Shown here: positions 23,705 through 59,330 of the stretch, in pieces
How the letters are laid out: each line of letters starts with the position of its first letter
Position numbering within the stretch: position 1 is the first letter of the stretch
IMG/VR virus record: IMGVR_UViG_3300036987_000083
Coordinates: 115,490 to 179,489 of that record
Source of the DNA: a virus
Reading direction: 5' to 3' (one strand)
DNA length: 64,000 nt
Notes under the pieces: model-generated
The model's input: the letters and a program-made list of their open reading frames with translations, nothing else
The model's database searches: none
Told to the model about the DNA's origin: nothing
Translations under genes and position numbers: made by a program

Positions 23705-23880
23705 AGGTAAGGTAGTCGGCTTAAGAGCAGCCAGCTTTAATGAGTGGGACCCCCTTCAGGACGCGAGCGCGGCGAAATGAAGGAAACGGAAGTAACCTCA
23801 GCAACCGTTACGCCCCGGGTCATACCCGGGAACCGAACACCCGCTTTGGTTTCCCTTTGGCGTAGCAGCACGCCTTGCCT
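23705..23880 (+). ncRNA. RNA mimicking 23S rRNA H43-H44 (L11/GTPase-associated centre) with a ~110-nt insertion
   Basis: GTCGGCTTAAGAGCAGCCAGCTTTAATGAGTG..GCGTAGCAGCAC, closed by AGGTAAGG/CCTTGCCT. Confidence 0.7.
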
Positions 23881-26396: not shown

Positions 26397-26480
26397 GCTC
26401 CGGTGGCGGAATTGGTAGACGCACCAGCTTGAGGGGCTGGCGACCGAAAGGTCATAGGGGTTCGATTCCCCTCTGGAGCA
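26397..26480 (+). tRNA. tRNA-Leu(GAG)
   Basis: CCAGC-TTGAGGG-GCTGG. Confidence 0.9.
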
Positions 26481-26492
26481 CAGAAAGGAATT

Positions 26493-50234: not shown

Positions 50235-51038
50235 ATGGACACCATCTACAAGTACCCACGCACAAAGCACATCTACGGCTCCAGGCTTCAAGACGGAGAC
50301 GAAGACCTTGAGGCTGTTCGATTAGACACGCTCAAGGGTAAGTATCTTGTTGTCGAAGAGAAGGTGGATGGCGCCAACAGCGGTATTTCCTTTGATTCGG
50401 ACACTTTAGAGCTTCGGCTTCAGAGTCGGGGACACTACCTCGGCTTGGAACCGAGCTACCGCGAGCGGCACTTCAACCTCTTCAAAAAGTGGGCAGTCCT
50501 TCATGAGGGCTGGCTGATGGACAAGCTTCAGGACAAGTACATTGCCTACGGCGAATGGATGTGGGCCAAGCACACGGAGTACTACGACCAACTTCCTCAC
50601 TACTGGATGGAGTTCGACGTGCTGGAAAAGTCGACTGGCAAGTTCTTCTCCACTGCCCGTCGTAAGGAATTCTGGAAGGGATGCCCGGTTGTTTCTGTTC
50701 CGGTGGTGCATGCTGGTCCTCTGGATAACCTCAAGCAACTCTCGTCCTTGATTCGACCGTCTCTTTACAAGAGTTCCAATTGGAAGGGCGCCTTGGCCGA
50801 AACGGCTAAAAGGAAGCAGTTGGACCTGGAGCGCATCATCAAAGAAACCGACCAGAGTGACTTAGCCGAAGGTGTCTACATCAAGTACGAAAGCGATGAC
50901 GAGACACTGGAGCGGTTCAAGTTCGTCCGTCATGAATTCGTACAGGCAATCAAGGACGCCGAAGGCCATTGGCTATCCAGGCCCATCGTCGAGAACCGCC
51001 TGGCAACAGGGGTCGACATTTTTGCGAGCCAGCTATGA
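50235..51038 (+). CDS. RNA ligase, Rnl2-like
   Basis: KYPRTKH..VEEKVDGAN..YGEW..EFDV..EGVYIK. Confidence 0.85.
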   Translation: MDTIYKYPRTKHIYGSRLQDGDEDLEAVRLDTLKGKYLVVEEKVDGANSGISFDSDTLELRLQSRGHYLGLEPSYRERHFNLFKKWAVLHEGWLMDKLQDKYIAYGEWMWAKHTEYYDQLPHYWMEFDVLEKSTGKFFSTARRKEFWKGCPVVSVPVVHAGPLDNLKQLSSLIRPSLYKSSNWKGALAETAKRKQLDLERIIKETDQSDLAEGVYIKYESDDETLERFKFVRHEFVQAIKDAEGHWLSRPIVENRLATGVDIFASQL

Positions 51039-51071
51039 CCCCGCTCGAAACTGGCATAGAGGTGACGTAGT

Positions 51072-51779
51072 GTGCCATGCTTGCGGAATATGGACATCAA
51101 AATATCCTACGACCGCCAGTTGGTAATTCGAGATTTCATAACCATCAATGGGGTGCGCCTGCGAGTTCGGTACAACCACGGTTACCCCTACGTCTCTTGG
51201 CCAGGGAGAAACGGACAAGTAGCTGTACATCGCATAGTCATGGAGCTTGCTTTGGGAAGGCGGCTGGAAGAAGGGGAGCATGTTCATCATAAAGATGAGA
51301 ATAAACTGAACAATGACCCCTCTAACTTGGAGGTTGTAGACGAGCATACACATATCTCTAGGCATATGATCAAGCGGAACACTCGCTACGATCCCGAGAA
51401 TTTTGTTTGCTCTGATTGTCGACGCTCCAAGGTAGCGCACAAGGCGCACGGTCTGTGTCTCAATTGTTGGTCAAAACGTCGGCGGCGTAAGTTAGTTAAA
51501 TACCCTTGTAAGATTTGTGGGCTGGAACGCACGGATAAACGAGGGACCGGGCGAGATGGGATGTGTGTCGAGTGTACCATTCGGCACTGGACAGCTTGTA
51601 TTTCCTGTAAGCGTACAAGAACTCAGATTTTGGAAAAACGAAAAACCAAAATCAATCTTCAAGGTCTATGCAGGGCCTGCGTAGCGAGGTTCGAGCGCAA
51701 AGCCGAAAGGGAACGCTGCACCTCTTGGAGTCATGCCGCCGCCTCTAGGGGAACAAAAGCGGTTGACAACGCACAGTAA
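51072..51779 (+). CDS. HNH endonuclease with Cys-rich tail
   Basis: VHRIVME..LGRRLEEGEHVHHKDENKLNNDPSNL. Confidence 0.85.
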   Translation: MPCLRNMDIKISYDRQLVIRDFITINGVRLRVRYNHGYPYVSWPGRNGQVAVHRIVMELALGRRLEEGEHVHHKDENKLNNDPSNLEVVDEHTHISRHMIKRNTRYDPENFVCSDCRRSKVAHKAHGLCLNCWSKRRRRKLVKYPCKICGLERTDKRGTGRDGMCVECTIRHWTACISCKRTRTQILEKRKTKINLQGLCRACVARFERKAERERCTSWSHAAASRGTKAVDNAQ

Positions 51780-51796
51780 ACGTAGTACTAGGGGGC

Positions 51797-52894
51797 ATGG
51801 ATACCAAGTACTCATGGGAGCCGCTCATTTGGCCTGAACTGGATAAGTCCCCCCAAGACTATATTTACCACGCCGAGGGCTCGGTCGGAGTCCACACCCG
51901 AATGGTCACGAACGAAATGCTTGGGCACGAGGGCTACTCCTCGCTGCCCGAGGTATCCCGGGATTTGCTCCACAGGACAGCGCTGCTCCACGACATCGGC
52001 AAGCCTTCCTGTACCCAGTTCGAGGGGGACCGAATTCGTAATCGGGGGCACGCTCGCGCTGGTGCAGTCCTGTCGCGAGGGCTGCTGTATGGTGAGGGGT
52101 ATGACCCGGTGCTTCGTGAGCACCTTTGCGCGCTGGTTCGCTCCCATACAACTCCCATGCACGCAATGAGGGCCAGTGACGAAGAGGTCCGGGCCACGGT
52201 GTTGAAGGCCAGTCTTATGCTGCGCTGCGACTACCTGACCATGCTAGCCGAGGCCGACAATCGGGGTCGCACTACCCCGGAATCCAAGGAACCCTTCATC
52301 TCCAACATCGGGTACTTCGCGGAATTTGCGAAGGAGTATAACTGTTTCGAGGGGCCTTACCCGTTCAAGAACGACCACAGCAAGTTCCTCTACTTCCAAA
52401 GCGGTGGTTCCCGCGACCCGGCCTACTTGGCGTATGATGACACCCAATTCGAGATGGTGATGATGGCTGGGTTCCCGGGGACGGGTAAGGACACTTGGAT
52501 TAAGAATTACTATTCCCACCTTCCCATGGTTTCCTTGGATGAGATTCGGAAGAAGCTCAAGGTCCCATCAGGGGTGAATCAGAGCCCGGTCATCATCAAA
52601 GCAAAGGAGCGCTTCAAGGAGTTGCTCCGCAAGAAGCAGTCGTTTGTGTTCAACGCCACGAGCTTGAACGCGGATCTTCGATTGCCTTGGATTAATCTTG
52701 CGGCGCAGTACAACGCGCGCATCCGCATTGTTTACTTGGAAGTGCCACTGCCGGAGCTGCTTAGGCGCAACAAGGCTCGGGAGGAGTCCGACCGCCTTCC
52801 TGAGGCAGCCATCTACAAGATGATGGCCAAGTGGAACATGCCCCACCCCTCAGAAGCGCACGTCGTCGAATACCACTACGGAGGCCAGTCATGA
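51797..52894 (+). CDS. HD-domain + P-loop kinase protein (polynucleotide kinase/RNA end-healing-like)
   Basis: YHAEGSVGVHT..LLHDIGKP; MMAGFPGTGKDTW..SLDEIR..NATSL. Confidence 0.85.
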   Translation: MDTKYSWEPLIWPELDKSPQDYIYHAEGSVGVHTRMVTNEMLGHEGYSSLPEVSRDLLHRTALLHDIGKPSCTQFEGDRIRNRGHARAGAVLSRGLLYGEGYDPVLREHLCALVRSHTTPMHAMRASDEEVRATVLKASLMLRCDYLTMLAEADNRGRTTPESKEPFISNIGYFAEFAKEYNCFEGPYPFKNDHSKFLYFQSGGSRDPAYLAYDDTQFEMVMMAGFPGTGKDTWIKNYYSHLPMVSLDEIRKKLKVPSGVNQSPVIIKAKERFKELLRKKQSFVFNATSLNADLRLPWINLAAQYNARIRIVYLEVPLPELLRRNKAREESDRLPEAAIYKMMAKWNMPHPSEAHVVEYHYGGQS

Positions 52895-53238
52895 GTAAGC
52901 AAGACAAGAAAAAGATTCGGGCAGCCTTCCGAAACGCAGTGTTCTCTCGCGATCGCTTCACCTGTAAGGGCTGCGGCGAAAAAGGAACCGAGGAGACCCT
53001 CGACGCCCATCACATCACTTCGAGAGATCTGATGGAATCGGGAGGGTACGTCGCCGAAAATGGAATCACACTGTGCAAGAAGGTTGGAGGCTGCCATGAG
53101 AAGGCTGAAGCCTTCGACGCCAACAGTAACATCGTACCCGGCTTCGAGCCTACGACGCTCTATTCCCTTATCGGAAGCACCTATGCCCAAGCAATCCAAG
53201 CGAGCGAAAAACTCAAGAAAGAAGAGCGCAATGCCTAA
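52891..53238 (+). CDS. HNH endonuclease
   Basis: FSRDRFTCKGCG..LDAHHI..NGITLC..CHEKAE. Confidence 0.8.
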   Translation: MSKQDKKKIRAAFRNAVFSRDRFTCKGCGEKGTEETLDAHHITSRDLMESGGYVAENGITLCKKVGGCHEKAEAFDANSNIVPGFEPTTLYSLIGSTYAQAIQASEKLKKEERNA

Positions 53239-53262
53239 GGGACATGTAGGGGCCGTGGACCT

Positions 53263-53715
53263 ATGAGTGCCATCGATAACTTTCGAGACTCCCATTATTT
53301 TTTGTCGAACTTCTACGAATCCCCCATGAAAGTAGACGGCAAAAGCTTCCGGACCAACGAGCACTTCTTCCAGGCAAGCAAGGCGACCCGTACAGAGGAT
53401 TTTGAGTACGTAAGAGCCTCCGCGACAGCGGCGCAGTCGAAGAAGCGTGGTCGCGAAATCGAGATGCGTGGCGACTGGGACAACGTGAAAAACGCTGTGA
53501 TGATGCAGGGACTCCGAGCCAAGTTTTCGGACCCCGTGCTTCGTCAGCAGCTCCTTGATACGGGTGATGCTGCTTTGATTGAGGGCAACAACTGGCATGA
53601 TGTTTGGTGGGGACGGTGCGACTGTTCCAAACATGGAGGCGATGGCCAGAACTGGCTGGGGCGACTACTGATGCAGCTACGTGAAGAACTCCGAAGAGAA
53701 GGTGCGGAACCGTAG
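53263..53715 (+). CDS. NADAR (YbiA-like) protein
   Basis: FLSNFY..TNEHFFQASK..KFSDP.LRQQLLDTGDAALIEGNNWHDVWWG..NWLGRLLMQLR. Confidence 0.9.
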   Translation: MSAIDNFRDSHYFLSNFYESPMKVDGKSFRTNEHFFQASKATRTEDFEYVRASATAAQSKKRGREIEMRGDWDNVKNAVMMQGLRAKFSDPVLRQQLLDTGDAALIEGNNWHDVWWGRCDCSKHGGDGQNWLGRLLMQLREELRREGAEP

Positions 53716-53897
53716 CGGTAAAACCTTGGCATGGCCGTGCTCTAGGGTCATCAGGCTGATCCGCTACAGGAATTTGATGTGGCTTAGGGGCTCCGCCGAG
53801 CCAGCTTCCTCGCGCAGAATCCCCTGTCACTTCAAGGGGAACCACGATTTCCGAGGAGGATTTTTGCGCTTCTAGAAAACTTGGGCGATTATTGGTT

Positions 53898-55016
53898 ATG
53901 CCCAACTTAAAAAAAGTGTGTTTGCGCTGCGGCAAAGCTTTACCCGCTACCCCAGATTACTTTCAACGGGACAACAGGAGTCCCGACGGTTTCAGGCATC
54001 CGTGTAAGGCTTGCCGAGGCACTACGCCGCACCCAGAGGCCAACCCCTACGGCAAGCTAGTAGAGCTGACTCGCCTCAAGCCTCTGCCCTTCATGGAACT
54101 TTGTAACCGACTCGACTTGTCCCCCGGCAAGACGAAAGCGCTAATCCACCAAGCCAAGGATGCAGGCATACTCATAAAAGTGAGTGATCATCACGTAGGT
54201 CTGCAGGTTCCAGGCGCTGACGAACGAGTCCAGCCAACAGGAATCATGCCCGTGGTGGGGAAGCGCCAAAAAATTGGAGTCATTAGCGATACCCACCTTG
54301 GTAGCAAGTACTGCCTGCGCGCTGAGTTGAAAGACTTCATCGAGTACGCGTATTCCCAAGGCGTTCGAGAGATTCTCCACCCAGGTGACATGCTCGACGG
54401 TAACTATGTCTCGCACGGCATGTTCGAACTGAGTCACGTCGGTCTGCAGCCGCAGATACAGGACCTGGTGGAAACGCTGCCGAAGAAGCCCGGCCTCTCC
54501 TACCATGCCATTACCGGCAACCACGATCTGACCTTCATGGAACAGAACGGTGTGGACGTCGGTCGCTCCATCACCAATGAGTTCAAGCGCGCTGGTCGCA
54601 ACGACTTCCACTTTTACGGCAACCGTGGCGCCTTCATCAAAATTCGCGGAGCCGTAGTACACCTATGGCACCCGATGGGCGGCGGCTCGTACGCCAAGAG
54701 CTACAAGCTGCAGAAGCAAATCGAGAAGTACGCCAGTGGCGAGAAGCCGCACATCGTACTGGCAGGACACTGGCACATCTACTGCCACGTGTATGAGCGG
54801 GGCGTGCACGCACTCGCCTGCCCCACGTTCCAAGGCGGCGGCTCCGCATTCGGCAAGGCGCTCGGTGGCGCGCCTACAATTGGTGGAATGATTCTCTCTT
54901 GGGAGCAAACAGCCCACGGGACCATGCGGAACTTCATTCACGAGTACCGAGCCTACTTCGAGAAGGAAACACCTCAGCAGCTCTTCACGGAAGAAGCATA
55001 CCGCGACAACCGCTGA
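53898..55016 (+). CDS. Metallophosphoesterase with N-terminal Zn-finger/HTH
   Basis: VISDTHLGS..HPGDMLDG..ITGNHD..LAGHWH. Confidence 0.85.
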   Translation: MPNLKKVCLRCGKALPATPDYFQRDNRSPDGFRHPCKACRGTTPHPEANPYGKLVELTRLKPLPFMELCNRLDLSPGKTKALIHQAKDAGILIKVSDHHVGLQVPGADERVQPTGIMPVVGKRQKIGVISDTHLGSKYCLRAELKDFIEYAYSQGVREILHPGDMLDGNYVSHGMFELSHVGLQPQIQDLVETLPKKPGLSYHAITGNHDLTFMEQNGVDVGRSITNEFKRAGRNDFHFYGNRGAFIKIRGAVVHLWHPMGGGSYAKSYKLQKQIEKYASGEKPHIVLAGHWHIYCHVYERGVHALACPTFQGGGSAFGKALGGAPTIGGMILSWEQTAHGTMRNFIHEYRAYFEKETPQQLFTEEAYRDNR

Positions 55017-55067
55017 AGGTTGACTACCGCACTGTAACATGCTAGACCCCCACTGGGGAGTCACCCA

Positions 55068-55481
55068 GTGGCTGAATCCGACACGCGCGAAATAGTCCTA
55101 AACGGTAGAAAATTCGTGGAGCACAGGCTGGCCTGCCCGGAGTGCCAAGCGCGGATGGCGCTCCGGGCATCCAAGTACGGGCTCTTCTACGGCTGCGTTG
55201 CCTTCCCCGCGTGCCGTGCCTCACATGGCGCTCATCCCACTGGGGCACCACTCGGTATTCCGGCTACAAAAGAAGTAAAGGAAGCGAGGATTCGCGCCCA
55301 CGACACGTTTGACCTCCTCTGGAAACAGGGGAGCATGTCGCGACACGAGGCTTACCGGTGGATGCGGACTGCGCTCGTGATGCCCAAGGAAGAGGCTCAC
55401 ATCGCTAACTTCGACATCGCGACTTGCAACAAGCTCATTCAAGCGGTTACGTTCTACCTGAAAGCCACAGTCTCGCAGTAA
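55068..55481 (+). CDS. Zn-finger protein (DUF3268-like)
   Basis: CPEC..FYGC..FPACRASHGAHP..PLG.PA..RIRAHDTFDLLW..HIANFD. Confidence 0.7.
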   Translation: MAESDTREIVLNGRKFVEHRLACPECQARMALRASKYGLFYGCVAFPACRASHGAHPTGAPLGIPATKEVKEARIRAHDTFDLLWKQGSMSRHEAYRWMRTALVMPKEEAHIANFDIATCNKLIQAVTFYLKATVSQ

Positions 55482-55511
55482 CAAACTACCCTCACAACTG
55501 GAGGTCACACC

Positions 55512-56187
55512 ATGAGTGCTGTAATTATCGAGATTCGGAGTGGTGAAGGTGGCGAAGACGCCAAGCGGCTGGTGATGGATCAGTTCGCCATTTACGGCAA
55601 GATGGGGGCTCGGAGGGGGCTTTGACATTGAGGTTCTAGACGCGAAACCGGGCCTGCTTGTCTTCCGCGCAGCAGGCCCTGAAGCCGCTGAGGCCTTCCG
55701 GCATGAACCGGGCGGGCATCGCTGGCAGCGGGTGCCTGAGAACGACGACAGAGTGCACACCTCAACCGTGACAGTCGCGGTATTCACGGAGCCTGACGAA
55801 GCCAGTTTCTACTTGAATCCTGCCGATTTGGACATCAAGACGACGCGAGGAAGCGGTCCAGGCGGGCAGAATCGTAATAAAACGGAAAGCTGCGTCGTAG
55901 CGACCTACAAGCCCACGGGGTTGGTAGTGCGCATCGACACTGAGCGCTCCCAACACAGAAATAAAGCGCTCGCTTTGGGGGTTCTACGGGCCCGGCTGTC
56001 TGAAGCCCACCAGGACGCGCGGGTGGGCAGCGAAAATGCTGCTAGAAAGGCCCAGGTGGGCTCGGGGATGCGCGGATGCAAGCGGCGAACTATTGCCATT
56101 CAACGAGACCAAGTGGTGGATCACATCCTTGGGGCTCGGACCTCCTGTACGAAGTACCTGAAAGGCGTATTTGACGGAGTCTGGTAG
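55512..56187 (+). CDS. PrfH-like class I peptide release factor expressed through a +1 frameshift at CTT TGA (55620-55625)
   Basis: IEIRSGEGG before the shift; GGHRWQRVP..RVHTSTVTVAV and GPGGQNRNKTES after; internal SD GGAGG then GGG CTT TGA C. Confidence 0.85.
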
Positions 56188-56279
56188 TCGCGTGAAGCCC
56201 GAGTCCCCTTTTGCATGTCAGGTAGCTTGTTCTCGTACGACAAGTATGCGCGAGGAGGTATGAGGTGTAAGCTGGGGCT

Positions 56280-56660
56280 ATGAGTGACATCGACACGGAT
56301 GCCTCCGCGCCGGGCCCCGTGCCCAACGCGGTGCCACCGCCACACACTTACGTGTTCCTTCTACTCCCTTGGAAACGGGTGGAGCCAGTGTTTAACCGGC
56401 TCTTCACCTACTCCATCTTCGGAGCGCTTGAAGGAAACTTCGTAGCGCGCAGGGCGCCAGCTCACATGATTAAACTAGTGGATGGCTCCGTAGCCTACCG
56501 CATGGACGCAGCCCACCTGCCAAAGTTCCAATTTGACGCTATTGGCTACTTCGTGGATTTGTACTCGTTTGGCGTACATAGATTCGTGACTACCGATCCT
56601 ACGCTCTCGATGGCACCCAACCCTCGGCAGGATATGTGGCTACCCGTAGGTAATGCCTAG
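56280..56660 (+). CDS. Hypothetical protein
   Basis: ORF in chain. Confidence 0.5.
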   Translation: MSDIDTDASAPGPVPNAVPPPHTYVFLLLPWKRVEPVFNRLFTYSIFGALEGNFVARRAPAHMIKLVDGSVAYRMDAAHLPKFQFDAIGYFVDLYSFGVHRFVTTDPTLSMAPNPRQDMWLPVGNA

Positions 56661-57030
56661 AGGAATTATGAACCACAAGCGCGGAAGAGCCAAGAGCAGC
56701 AGAGCAGGGTGTCTTTTATGTCGGCCATGGAAGCACCAAGCTGCAAAAGGCGGTAGCCGCCCGGACATCGTAGGACCGAGAAACTTCCGGCTCACACAGG
56801 ACAAGCTGGAGGATCTTTCCCACGAAGACTCAATGAGCGCCATCGACAAGGAGATGGCCGCGTTGTACTGCGACAACGACTACTGTGATTGTAATAACTA
56901 TGGCGAAGTACACGAAGCGATGCTCTCCGAGTGGCTTACCGGAGAAACAACCTCCAAGCTCGCCGAGATGGGGGTGACCGTCACTTGGACGAGGGAGCAC
57001 CCGGTACTCTGTCACTTGACAATCGACTAG
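56653..57030 (+). CDS. Hypothetical protein
   Basis: ORF in chain. Confidence 0.5.
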   Translation: MPRGIMNHKRGRAKSSRAGCLLCRPWKHQAAKGGSRPDIVGPRNFRLTQDKLEDLSHEDSMSAIDKEMAALYCDNDYCDCNNYGEVHEAMLSEWLTGETTSKLAEMGVTVTWTREHPVLCHLTID

Positions 57031-57049
57031 TCGTAGTGTACATGGAGTC

Positions 57050-57793
57050 ATGCCACTTCAGCTTCAGGTAGTTAGCGATCTCCACCTCGACCACCACAGA
57101 GATGGTGGACTGGATTTCCTTACCCATCTGCCCGTTGCTGCAGAGGTCTTGGTGATTGCCGGAGACTTGGCGGAGCTTCGTTTTTTCGGTCAGACCAAGG
57201 AAAGGCTTGAATCCCTGTGTAAAGGGCGTCGCCGCGTGTTTTTTGTGACCGGCAACCACGAATACTATAACGGAACGCCCTCGGCGGTTGACGCCCTGAT
57301 TGCGGCAGTGGAAGCGGAACTTCCTGTGCTTCGCGTGCTGCGACCAGGGCGGGTTGAAGAGCTAGACGGCCATCGTGTTCTCGGAGCTACTCTTTGGTTC
57401 CGAGACGACCCATACAACGCCATGTATGCGAAGAACATGAATGACTTCCACCAAATCAAGCAATTCACTCCTTGGGTCTACGAGCAGAACGTCGCAGCAT
57501 TGAACTTTTTGGAATCAGACCTGAGCCCGGGTGACATCGTTGTCACGCACCACCTGCCAAGCAAGGAGAGCGTCCATCCCCGATACACCGGCTCACCTAT
57601 CAACCGATTTTTTCTCTGCGACATGGAGGGACTTATTCGTGAGCGTAAACCCGCGCTGTGGCTCCACGGCCACACGCACCAAGCCTGTGATTACAAGATA
57701 GATACGTGCCGTATAGTAGCGAATCCGCTAGGATACCCGAGGGAGTCGTCCAACCTCACGTTTAACGACAAGCTCGTTTTGTCGGTACCCTAG
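57050..57793 (+). CDS. Metallophosphoesterase
   Basis: VSDLHLD..IAGDL..VTGNHEYY..VTHHLP..WLHGHTH. Confidence 0.9.
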   Translation: MPLQLQVVSDLHLDHHRDGGLDFLTHLPVAAEVLVIAGDLAELRFFGQTKERLESLCKGRRRVFFVTGNHEYYNGTPSAVDALIAAVEAELPVLRVLRPGRVEELDGHRVLGATLWFRDDPYNAMYAKNMNDFHQIKQFTPWVYEQNVAALNFLESDLSPGDIVVTHHLPSKESVHPRYTGSPINRFFLCDMEGLIRERKPALWLHGHTHQACDYKIDTCRIVANPLGYPRESSNLTFNDKLVLSVP

Positions 57794-58052
57794 GAGCGCC
57801 GTTGCGTAAGAAACCCGCCGTAGTAACGCCCCCTCAGTACGATGACGGAGTCGTGCGCGTAGCACAGTGTCCGGTGTGTAAGCGCGAGAACAGGCTGCTG
57901 ACCAAGCACGAAGAGAATGCACCCACAGAGGTTTGGTCCTGCGCGGATGTCGAGGGTTGCGGTCAGGTTGTGGCCACGGCTGCGACTGTAGCGCGTACAA
58001 AGGCGAGAGCCGCAGCCAAGGCTGCTGTCCGTAAGGTGATTGACGAAGGGGA

Positions 58053-59330
58053 TTGACGATGGCGTTGTCCAGGTTGCAGGGTACTCAGACGGAAGTCTTG
58101 TTGTGGTCCCCTCTTGAAGAAGTCGAGCTTGACGCACAGAAGCAGCTCATCAACACCGCTTCGCTTGCTCAGGCAGTGAAGGTGCTGTCGATGCCCGACG
58201 TGCACACCGGCTACGGTGTTGCTGTTGGGTCGGTTGTCGCTTTGAAGGACGCGGTTTGTCCGAATATCGTCGGCGTAGATATCGGCTGCGGCATGATGGC
58301 TTACCGCACCAATCTCACTGCTGACATGATGCCTAAGGATTTGTCCTCTCTGCGTGCGCGCATTGAAGAGTTCATTCCTATGGGCACAGGACAGTGCCAC
58401 GAAGACCCCTCTGAGTTGATTAAGGCCCCTCAGTACGAGGAGTTGTGGGCTCGCGTAGCTGCTGCGGACCAAACCAAGTGCACCATGGAGAAGGCCAAGC
58501 AGCAAATGGGCACCTTGGGTTCTGGAAACCACTTCATCGAGGTGTGTCTCGACTCGGAAGAGCACGTGTGGCTGATGCTGCATTCTGGTAGCCGTAATTT
58601 TGGCCTCCAGGTGGCGGAAGTCTACCAGTGGAAGGCCTCGATGCTTCCCATCAACGCAAACCTTCCTGACCAATCTTTGGCGGTGCTACCTCGTAGCTCT
58701 CCGGAGTTCATGGCCTATTGGACCGACATGCAGACGGCGCAGCTCTACGCAAAGCTGAACCGCGATACCATGTTTGAGTTGCTCCTTCGGGCACTTAAGG
58801 CTGAAGGCCTTAAGGTCGAGACTACGGACATTGGCGTCAACTGCCACCACAATTACGCCATGGAAGAGGTTCATGAGGGGGAGACGCTTGTCGTAGCCCG
58901 TAAGGGCGCCATCAGCGCAAGGAAGGGCGAAATGGGCATCATCCCGGGCGCGATGGGACGCAAGAGCTTCATCGTAGAGGGTTTGGGCAACCCTGAGAGC
59001 CTGCTGAGCGCCAGCCACGGAGCTGGCCGAAAGATGAGCCGTACCAAGGCGAAGAATACCTTCTCGCTAGACGACCTTCGCGCTTCCACCAAGGGAGTCG
59101 AGTGCCACATCGGCAAGGATGTCCTTGATGAGATTGCGGAGGCCTACAAGGACATCGAAAAGGTGATGCTCTATCAGGCGGATCTTGTCCGTCCCCTGTA
59201 TGAGCTGCGCTCCATCCTAACCGCCAAGGGCCATGATCAGAAAATCAAGGTCGATCGAAAGGCGGAAGCAAAGGCGCGAGAGGCAGAGCGTCGCGAGGCT
59301 CGCACCTTCAAGCAAGGTTGCCGTCAGTAG
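58053..59330 (+). CDS. rtcB: RtcB RNA-splicing ligase
   Basis: MPDVHTGYG..VGVDIGCG..GTLGSGNHFIE..LHSGSR..HHNY..RKGA..SASHGAGR..DEIAEAYKDI. Confidence 0.95.
   Translation: MTMALSRLQGTQTEVLLWSPLEEVELDAQKQLINTASLAQAVKVLSMPDVHTGYGVAVGSVVALKDAVCPNIVGVDIGCGMMAYRTNLTADMMPKDLSSLRARIEEFIPMGTGQCHEDPSELIKAPQYEELWARVAAADQTKCTMEKAKQQMGTLGSGNHFIEVCLDSEEHVWLMLHSGSRNFGLQVAEVYQWKASMLPINANLPDQSLAVLPRSSPEFMAYWTDMQTAQLYAKLNRDTMFELLLRALKAEGLKVETTDIGVNCHHNYAMEEVHEGETLVVARKGAISARKGEMGIIPGAMGRKSFIVEGLGNPESLLSASHGAGRKMSRTKAKNTFSLDDLRASTKGVECHIGKDVLDEIAEAYKDIEKVMLYQADLVRPLYELRSILTAKGHDQKIKVDRKAEAKAREAERREARTFKQGCRQ

Follow-up and report, generated by a model that had tools for sequence, protein, structure and literature searches.

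A prfB-type +1 frameshift site conserved in a family of short, RF1-type release-factor genes borne mostly by large phages

The stretch of DNA analysed here, called the window, is the final 64 kb of a 179,489-bp contig of an uncultured phage from IMG/VR (IMGVR_UViG_3300036987_000083; CheckV completeness 88%). Homology shows that positions 55512–56187, here called the short release-factor (RF) gene, encode what is predicted to be one class-I, RF1-type release factor that lacks domain 1 and is written in two frames. An earlier reading of the letters alone (the original prediction) had described 37 codons ending in CGG AGG GGG CTT TGA C, with an internal GGAGG 3 nucleotides (nt) before CTT, and this layout was confirmed on the sequence. 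The features referred to below are as follows.

55500–55504, + strand: Shine-Dalgarno (SD) sequence GGAGG of the first open reading frame (ORF1), 7 nt 5′ of the ATG at 55512, read from the sequence.
55512–55622, + strand: ORF1 in frame 0, 37 sense codons, covering the first beta-strand and helix (alpha5 in RF1) of release-factor domain 2.
55530–55559, + strand: EIRSGEGGED, the strand-to-helix tip, in which E-I-R-A/S-x-E-G-G is kept in all relatives.
55612–55616, + strand: internal SD-like GGAGG, the putative frameshift stimulator, followed by the 3-nt spacer GGG at 55617–55619.
55620–55626, + strand: shift heptamer CTT TGA C, made of the slippery Leu codon, the frame-0 stop TGA (55623–55625) and a C that gives a weak stop context.
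55624–56187, + strand: ORF2 in the +1 frame, 187 codons plus TAG (56185–56187), covering the remainder of domain 2, the GGQ domain 3, and domain 4.
55735–55749, + strand: P-E-N-D-D decoding loop, which replaces P-x-T-E-x-x-G of RF1 and is two residues shorter.
55861–55869, + strand: GGQ, the catalytic motif of class-I release factors, invariant in the family alignments.
26397–26481, + strand: tRNA-Leu(GAG), the isoacceptor type reading CUU, called by ARAGORN.

When CTTT is read as one Leu step the two frames join into a product of 224 amino acids, with P-E-N at residues 75–77, GGQ at residues 117–119, and a junction at which RRGL is followed by DIEV; the junction peptide is GLDIEVLDAKPGLLVFR (it begins GLDIEVLDAK). 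The joined translation and its homology bear out the earlier description of a +1-frame product of about 224 residues that has GGQ and PEN and is without domain 1. Also as described there, the ORF list gives only a truncated 151-residue part, started at GTG (55732–56187), together with the 37-residue piece. The arrangement GGAGG-N3-CTTT plus a stop occurs once in the whole 179,489-bp genome, both strands counted. Together with the unbroken homology at the junction and the recurrence of the site in relatives, described below, this makes it more than a coincidence.

Homology runs through the junction. The Pfam PCRF family covers residues 3–88 without a break at the junction at residue 37, its match being limited to profile positions 101–194, and the RF-1 family covers residues 97–204. 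In a phmmer search of the PDB, residues 4–220 aligned to residues 107–328 of Thermus thermophilus RF1, ungapped at RRGL|DIEV. Since this alignment begins where domain 2 of RF1 begins (residue 107), the product of the short RF gene is without domain 1. ORF1 by itself aligns to T. thermophilus RF1 residues 107–140 and to the PCRF profile from position 101. We take the EIRSGEGGED tip within it to be the element with which RF1 reads the first U of the stop codon.

For structural guidance, a natural homologue whose gene is in frame, P0010, 62% identical to the window protein over the +1 part, was modelled with AlphaFold (mean predicted local distance difference test score 85). The model has a strand at residues 3–12, a helix at 15–34 and the next strand at 38–45, so that the junction sits in a helix-strand loop. 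The 37-residue frame-0 product is therefore a domain fragment, not a unit.

The shift site is not particular to the window. In the first 12 homologous loci, which are 45–54% identical and include the 485-kb phage LR745208.1, CTT plus a stop stands at the same codon in all 12. A profile scan of IMG/VR then gave 498 relatives, and the best 80 loci, mostly on contigs of 50–620 kb, were examined. A +1 shift is needed in 76 of these 80 (∼95%), three have an in-frame stop at the same codon and one is in frame. The finished genome of the bacterium Minicystis rosea has the gene split alike, at CGG AGT GGG CTT TGA C. Most relatives in the protein database are entered as wrongly called ORFs of the +1 frame, whose start is junk ending G-G-x-F-[DES], the +1 reading of the shift site; about 8 of the top 120 relatives there are truly in frame, and R-R-G is absent from those.

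Constraint at the site reaches the nucleotide level. CTT-T is invariant in 76 of 76 unique sites, where the stop is TGA in 58, TAG in 14 and TAA in 4; the base after the stop is C in 57 of the 76, and TGAC is found in 42. GGAGG stands at the exact 3-nt spacing in 41 sites and some SD-like run is present in 57. The Arg codons before the spacer are CGG in 53 of 63 cases at codon −3 and AGG in 44 of 47 at codon −2, against backgrounds in the rest of the same genes of 17% CGG and 12% AGG among Arg codons (CTT makes up 16% of Leu codons). Fixation of these synonymous codons has P ∼1e-30 for CGG and ∼1e-37 for AGG, with relatedness ignored. The closest relative, locus L127, has 80.6% DNA identity to the window gene, but the 27 nt preceding the stop are identical. 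Comparison of sequences thus shows conservation of the site, of the codon at which it stands and of its constraints at the nucleotide level across a large family, most members of which are in large or huge phages and a few in cellular genomes.

The original prediction, that a prfB-type +1 frameshift is needed to make a domain-1-less release factor, is strongly supported by this comparative evidence. It had named as its own undoing a sequencing error with homologues in frame; the homologues proved to be mostly shifted and to carry the same site. As judged from these comparisons the +1 shift is programmed, and sequencing error and a pseudogene are excluded.

Among cultured and deposited phages, megablast found no match to the window phage. 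A tblastn search gave LR745208.1 as the sole family member, its other matches being ordinary RF1 or RF2. In cells the short RF gene is rare: of 301 genomes sampled from the Minicystis phylum, 4 were found to have it.

The stop at the site is not a random draw from the stops that these genomes use. Neighbouring genes in the family loci end in TGA (46%), TAG (24%) or TAA (30%), and the short RF gene's own terminal stop is TGA in 32%, TAG in 14% and TAA in 54%; at the shift site the figures are 76%, 18% and 5%. Site and background stops differ with a chi-square P of 1e-7, and for TAA, at no more than 4 of 76 sites, P = 9e-8. The site therefore prefers stops that only one of the two factors reads.

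A tree of 95 family members and 14 RF1s, made with a quick search and rooted on RF1, has TGA-shift forms throughout, with TAG, TAA, in-frame and in-frame-stop forms scattered within; at least 8 changes are needed for TAG and at least 7 for in-frame forms. A TGA site of long standing in the family, repeatedly altered since, would give such a pattern. Stop type showed no correlation with decoding-loop type (PxT, PxN or short) in the family, so there is no sign of matched self-feedback.

Three relatives that keep an in-frame stop have lost the slippery CTT: L042 near 7000 (CTC TGA CTG), L090 (CTA TGA CTG) and L084 (TAT TAG ATG). L084 and L090 are sisters with different stops, and their downstream genes are intact. 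These three resemble cases of maintained read-through or, in L084, of re-initiation more than cases of decay. The genome of L042 (G314) has a tRNA gene with anticodon CTA and a tmRNA gene, at 111560–111633 and 55346–55771, and that of L090 (G343) has a tRNA gene with anticodon TTA at 182322–182397. Neither tRNA matches the TGA in its own release-factor gene. ORF statistics and tRNA scans of the L042 and L090 genomes gave no TGA suppressor, and coverage by the standard code was good.

The product belongs with RF1. NCBIfam models score it at 186 bits for RF1, 112 for RF2, 80 for PrfH and 31 for ArfB, none reaching its cut-off, and four in-frame relatives give the same ranking (75–93 bits with the PrfH model). 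The whole-protein RF1 cut-offs are missed (TIGR00019, 186.3 versus 400; NF001859, 175.7 versus 423.25) with profile positions 105–327 covered; scores are about half the curated cut-offs because domain 1 is absent. PDB E-values are 1e-41 for RF1, 1e-23 for RF2 and 1e-11 for PrfH, the last over the GGQ domain only. Foldseek placed the P0010 model closest to ribosome-bound RF1 (template-modelling (TM) score 0.87, root-mean-square deviation 2.3 Å), with RF2 at ∼0.82 and PrfH at 0.67. An ArfB identity was considered and rejected, since that model matches residues 99–129 only, at 31 bits, and the window protein has domains 2 and 4. The PHROGs collection holds no dedicated family, only a full-length RF1-like profile.

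Within the RF1 type the short proteins stand apart. The window protein scores 200–313 bits against the short family and 141 against the best of 856 full-length RF1s, and the short family forms one clade behind a branch of 100% support, with no full-length close kin. Most members keep the RF1 P-x-T (P-P-T-E-K-R-G-R-V-H-T-S), and P-P-N or P-P-S is seen in many. In the subfamily to which the window member belongs the motif is P-x-N-[DS]-D and the loop is two residues shorter (HMMER places the gap after P); a few members have larger deletions of the decoding loop. The window's PEN is therefore real and part of a conserved variant, not a one-off; by its shortened P-x-N-D-D loop the window member may differ from RF1 in codon specificity.

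We propose that the short RF gene encodes an auxiliary release factor without domain 1 whose synthesis is gated by slowness of stop decoding, mostly at UGA and so by RF2; we would give this reading a probability of about 0.72. A ribosome with tRNA-Leu on CUU in its P site and UGA in its A site would be waiting for a release factor. Base pairing between 16S rRNA and the internal SD, which lies three bases upstream, would then favour re-pairing of the tRNA on UUU, in the +1 frame. The phage's own tRNA-Leu(GAG) is a possible candidate for the tRNA that slips at CTT. The yield of full-length protein would be inverse to the speed of stop decoding, and if termination wins only the 37-residue fragment would be made. 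Most products are of RF1 type and most sites are UGA, which RF2 reads, so the gate would cross-sense host RF2 or termination in general, not report on its own product; self-feedback at UGA sites appears unlikely from the sequences. The UAG and UAA versions could be truly self-limiting. The protein itself would be a phage-supplied peptide-release factor within the phage translation gene set.

Such a factor probably works without RF3-dependent recycling. RF1 without domain 1 releases peptides in vitro and functions in vivo, and does not stimulate nucleotide exchange on RF3, according to work that is cited in PMC1586002. As the truncated RF1 is reported to be active and not to stimulate nucleotide exchange on RF3, a domain-1-less, RF3-independent factor is plausible.

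Sensing of poor UGA termination by the site can reasonably be proposed on the precedent of prfB and would fit the enrichment of factor-specific stops. The original prediction went further in making the site a sensor of ribosome or RF2 damage, which exceeds the evidence.

Several points weigh against the reading as a gate on stop decoding. No clear SD is seen at 19 of the 76 sites, so the stimulator is not universal, and the P values for codon fixation take related sequences as independent. The window loop is without the Thr of PxT, so this member cannot be counted on to release at UAA or UAG. That frameshifting occurs, how efficient it would be and how it would answer to release-factor levels are predictions by analogy with prfB. 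An RF1-type product behind an RF2-read stop has no obvious feedback logic, and fixed attenuation would explain the same sequence.

Under fixed attenuation the programmed frameshift would be real, but it would merely hold the yield low and constant, or delay it, whatever the levels of release factors. We regard it as unlikely. All three stops do occur at the site and were swapped many times on the tree, the specificity of the product (PxT) is uncorrelated with the site stop, and some members are in frame. Against this, TAA, which both factors read, is strongly avoided (4 of 76 versus a background of 30%), and the three non-shifting relatives retain a stop at the same codon, pointing to the stop itself as what is selected. 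As far as is known, the prfB cassette has proved sensitive to RF2 level in every case put to the test, which also counts against a fixed yield. A competitor is very improbable, that is, a domain-1-less RF1 look-alike that occupies the A site at stops and alters host termination, for example in favour of phage suppressor tRNAs or read-through, instead of adding release capacity. In its favour, decoding loops are highly variable or deleted in parts of the family (L001, L013, L042 and L055), and the CTA and TTA anticodons in two relatives' genomes are of suppressor type; but GGQ and its surroundings are invariant in the family, arguing for retained catalysis, and no suppressor tRNA was found among the 47 tRNA or tmRNA genes that ARAGORN called genome-wide in the window phage (42 of them tRNA genes in the window). 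That genome reads well in the standard code, and by a crude gene call its stops are TGA (111), TAG (84) and TAA (63), TAG ending about a third of genes. An error, a pseudogene, or separate translation of the two pieces, in which the internal GGAGG would be simply the ribosome-binding site of the second ORF, can for practical purposes be set aside. Gene callers do split the gene everywhere; yet the same 1-nt offset stands at the same codon in 76 independent assemblies and a finished genome, and both halves are under purifying selection. No +1 start lies near the site, the first being the GTG at 55732, which would delete half of domain 2, and re-initiation does not need an invariant CTT-T.

The original prediction had called the protein PrfH-like, which holds for its architecture (no domain 1) and fails for its sequence and fold, both of RF1 type; the PrfH model was failed. 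A PrfH-type role, freeing peptides from ribosomes whose decoding centre was cut by a ribotoxin, paired with a nearby RtcB that reseals the rRNA, is in our judgement quite unlikely. Its appeal lies in the missing domain 1, in a window decoding loop that is shortened and without the Thr of PxT, and in an RNA-repair cluster with RtcB ∼1.9 kb downstream in the window phage and its closest relative. The 1.9-kb distance, noted in the original prediction, is right (rtcB starts at 58053, 1.87 kb downstream). The score on TIGR03072 is, however, 79.7 bits against a cut-off of 166.65 and against 186 for RF1, the PDB alignment to PrfH (E 1e-11) is confined to the GGQ domain, and the fold is nearer to RF1 (TM 0.87) than to PrfH (0.67). 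No stretch resembling the PrfH recognition residues R83, H85, H86, R88, K89 and N90 (PMC9304027) was seen, and the window loop retains Q-R-V-P...R-V-H-T-S-T of RF1. Of 83 loci, 1 has RtcB within 7 kb, and of the 23 family genomes with a completeness of 90% or more, 2 have RtcB at all; the window RtcB scores 140.1 bits on the PrfH-partner model TIGR03073 (cut-off 271.8), and it lies downstream of the short RF gene with three ORFs between. Minicystis rosea (CP016211.1) carries both kinds of gene: an in-frame rtcB2-prfH-like operon at L021:59-2136 and, elsewhere, the frameshifted short RF1-type gene at L015:7898-8567. The RtcB of that operon passes TIGR03073 (285 bits) and overlaps the PrfH-like gene, which scores best on TIGR03072 (146.5 bits) and whose product is 29% identical to the window protein. 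The PrfH-like and short RF1-type families are therefore distinct.

The RNA-repair cluster of the window (50235–59330) holds Rnl, a protein with HD and P-loop kinase domains, NADAR, two metallophosphoesterases and RtcB. Synteny of the cluster extends to the closest relative (L127:5144-13605), where PTH2 and NUDIX genes replace the window's HNH gene and other ORFs, and it was not seen in another short-loop member. The window RtcB (58053–59330) scores best, at 348 bits, on the extein parts of a model for an intein-containing RtcB family; it fails the cut-offs of the general RtcB equivalog and of the PrfH partner, and at 425 amino acids is too short to hold an intein. What sets the window apart is its shortened P-E-N-D-D loop together with an RNA-repair neighbourhood that is particular to its lineage.

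ORFs within 7 kb of the short RF gene were called and clustered in 84 loci. No conserved partner emerged from them: beyond homing nucleases nothing is found in more than 11 loci, and the genes for RtcB, Rnl, the kinase and the phosphoesterases, which accompany the short RF gene in the window, are not kept near it in the family. The commonest neighbours are HNH (11 loci) and a NUMOD3 protein (8), with NADAR in 9 and DUF3268 in 5. At least one tRNA gene lies within 7 kb in 46 of the 84 loci and at least five in 36. A zinc-ribbon DUF3268 protein is encoded directly upstream of the short RF gene in the window (55068–55481). Of 83 loci, 5 have a homologue of it within 7 kb; the 436-kb phage L016 has a DUF3268 gene ∼2 kb upstream of the short RF gene. 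An RF1 without domain 1 might have no need of L11, which would tie the short RF gene to window positions 23705–23880, a putative copy of an L11-binding-site RNA; these positions gave no match by BLAST against 50 family genomes, in a search that was insensitive and had no positive control.

Tentatively, and with the odds against it as a whole, a fuller picture can be drawn. The prfB cassette would have evolved independently at a new site, and a cross-factor sensor (UGA through RF2, UAG through RF1 or the factor itself) would set the output of an RF3-independent, RF1-type factor. The P-x-N-D-D subfamily may have altered or relaxed specificity, and may be of rescue type beside the phage's tRNA and RNA-repair genes.

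These genes matter in several ways. The prfB frameshift is textbook translational autoregulation, treated as unique to RF2; here a cassette of the prfB kind stands in an RF1-type gene, at a position not homologous to that in prfB, and the family concerned runs to thousands of genes, mostly borne by phages. The TGA, TAG and TAA versions and the few relatives with a stop and no shift are a natural experiment on how such a signal evolves. The family may offer a case where the factor sensed differs from the product, and a way to study the control of termination capacity by large phages during infection. In nearly all records the gene has been split or truncated by gene callers, so hundreds of N-termini in databases are wrong.

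One of the closest known systems is prfB, the RF2 gene. Its cassette is equal element for element (GGAGG-type SD, 3-nt spacer, CUU, UGA, C), the shift is likewise +1, and the gene is of the same superfamily; a minority of members is in frame in both. The position differs. In prfB the shift occurs within domain 1, near codon 26, whereas residue 37 of the short RF corresponds to about position 150 of the RF2 profile TIGR00020, the end of the first domain-2 helix (residues 3–210 align to profile positions 117–333). Because the short RF product is of RF1 type, UGA is unlikely to give self-feedback here. A survey of prfB found no TAG among 8,164 sites, and no programmed shift in prfA (PMC12421855), whereas the short RF family has TAG at 14 of 76; unlike prfB, this family is mainly phage-borne. 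An RF1 counterpart of the prfB frameshift has been called unknown (PMC5009743), and the GeneTack survey lists prfB only.

RF1 itself (prfA) is the best match in sequence and fold, through domains 2–4, GGQ and Q...P...R-V-H-T-S-T round the decoding loop; it has domain 1 and is reported to have no programmed frameshift (PMC12421855), and differs from the short RF family on both counts. PrfH, with RtcB2 (PMC1586002, PMC9304027, PMC13166195), is also a release-factor homologue without domain 1. It is in frame and directly follows rtcB2 in one operon, whereas the window RtcB is downstream, three ORFs off and not of RtcB2 type. The RF1 and RF2 genes of recoded phages (bioRxiv 10.1101/2021.08.26.457843) are alike in that a phage supplies a class-I release factor in a set for taking over translation; that text is without mention of frameshifting, and the likeness is one of description. 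The truncated RF1 of the laboratory was engineered, whereas the short RF family is natural and conserved and would have an expression gate of its own. No description of the family was found in the literature searched, and we regard it as a real and conserved, apparently unpublished version of a familiar recoding device, set in a gene family that is itself new.

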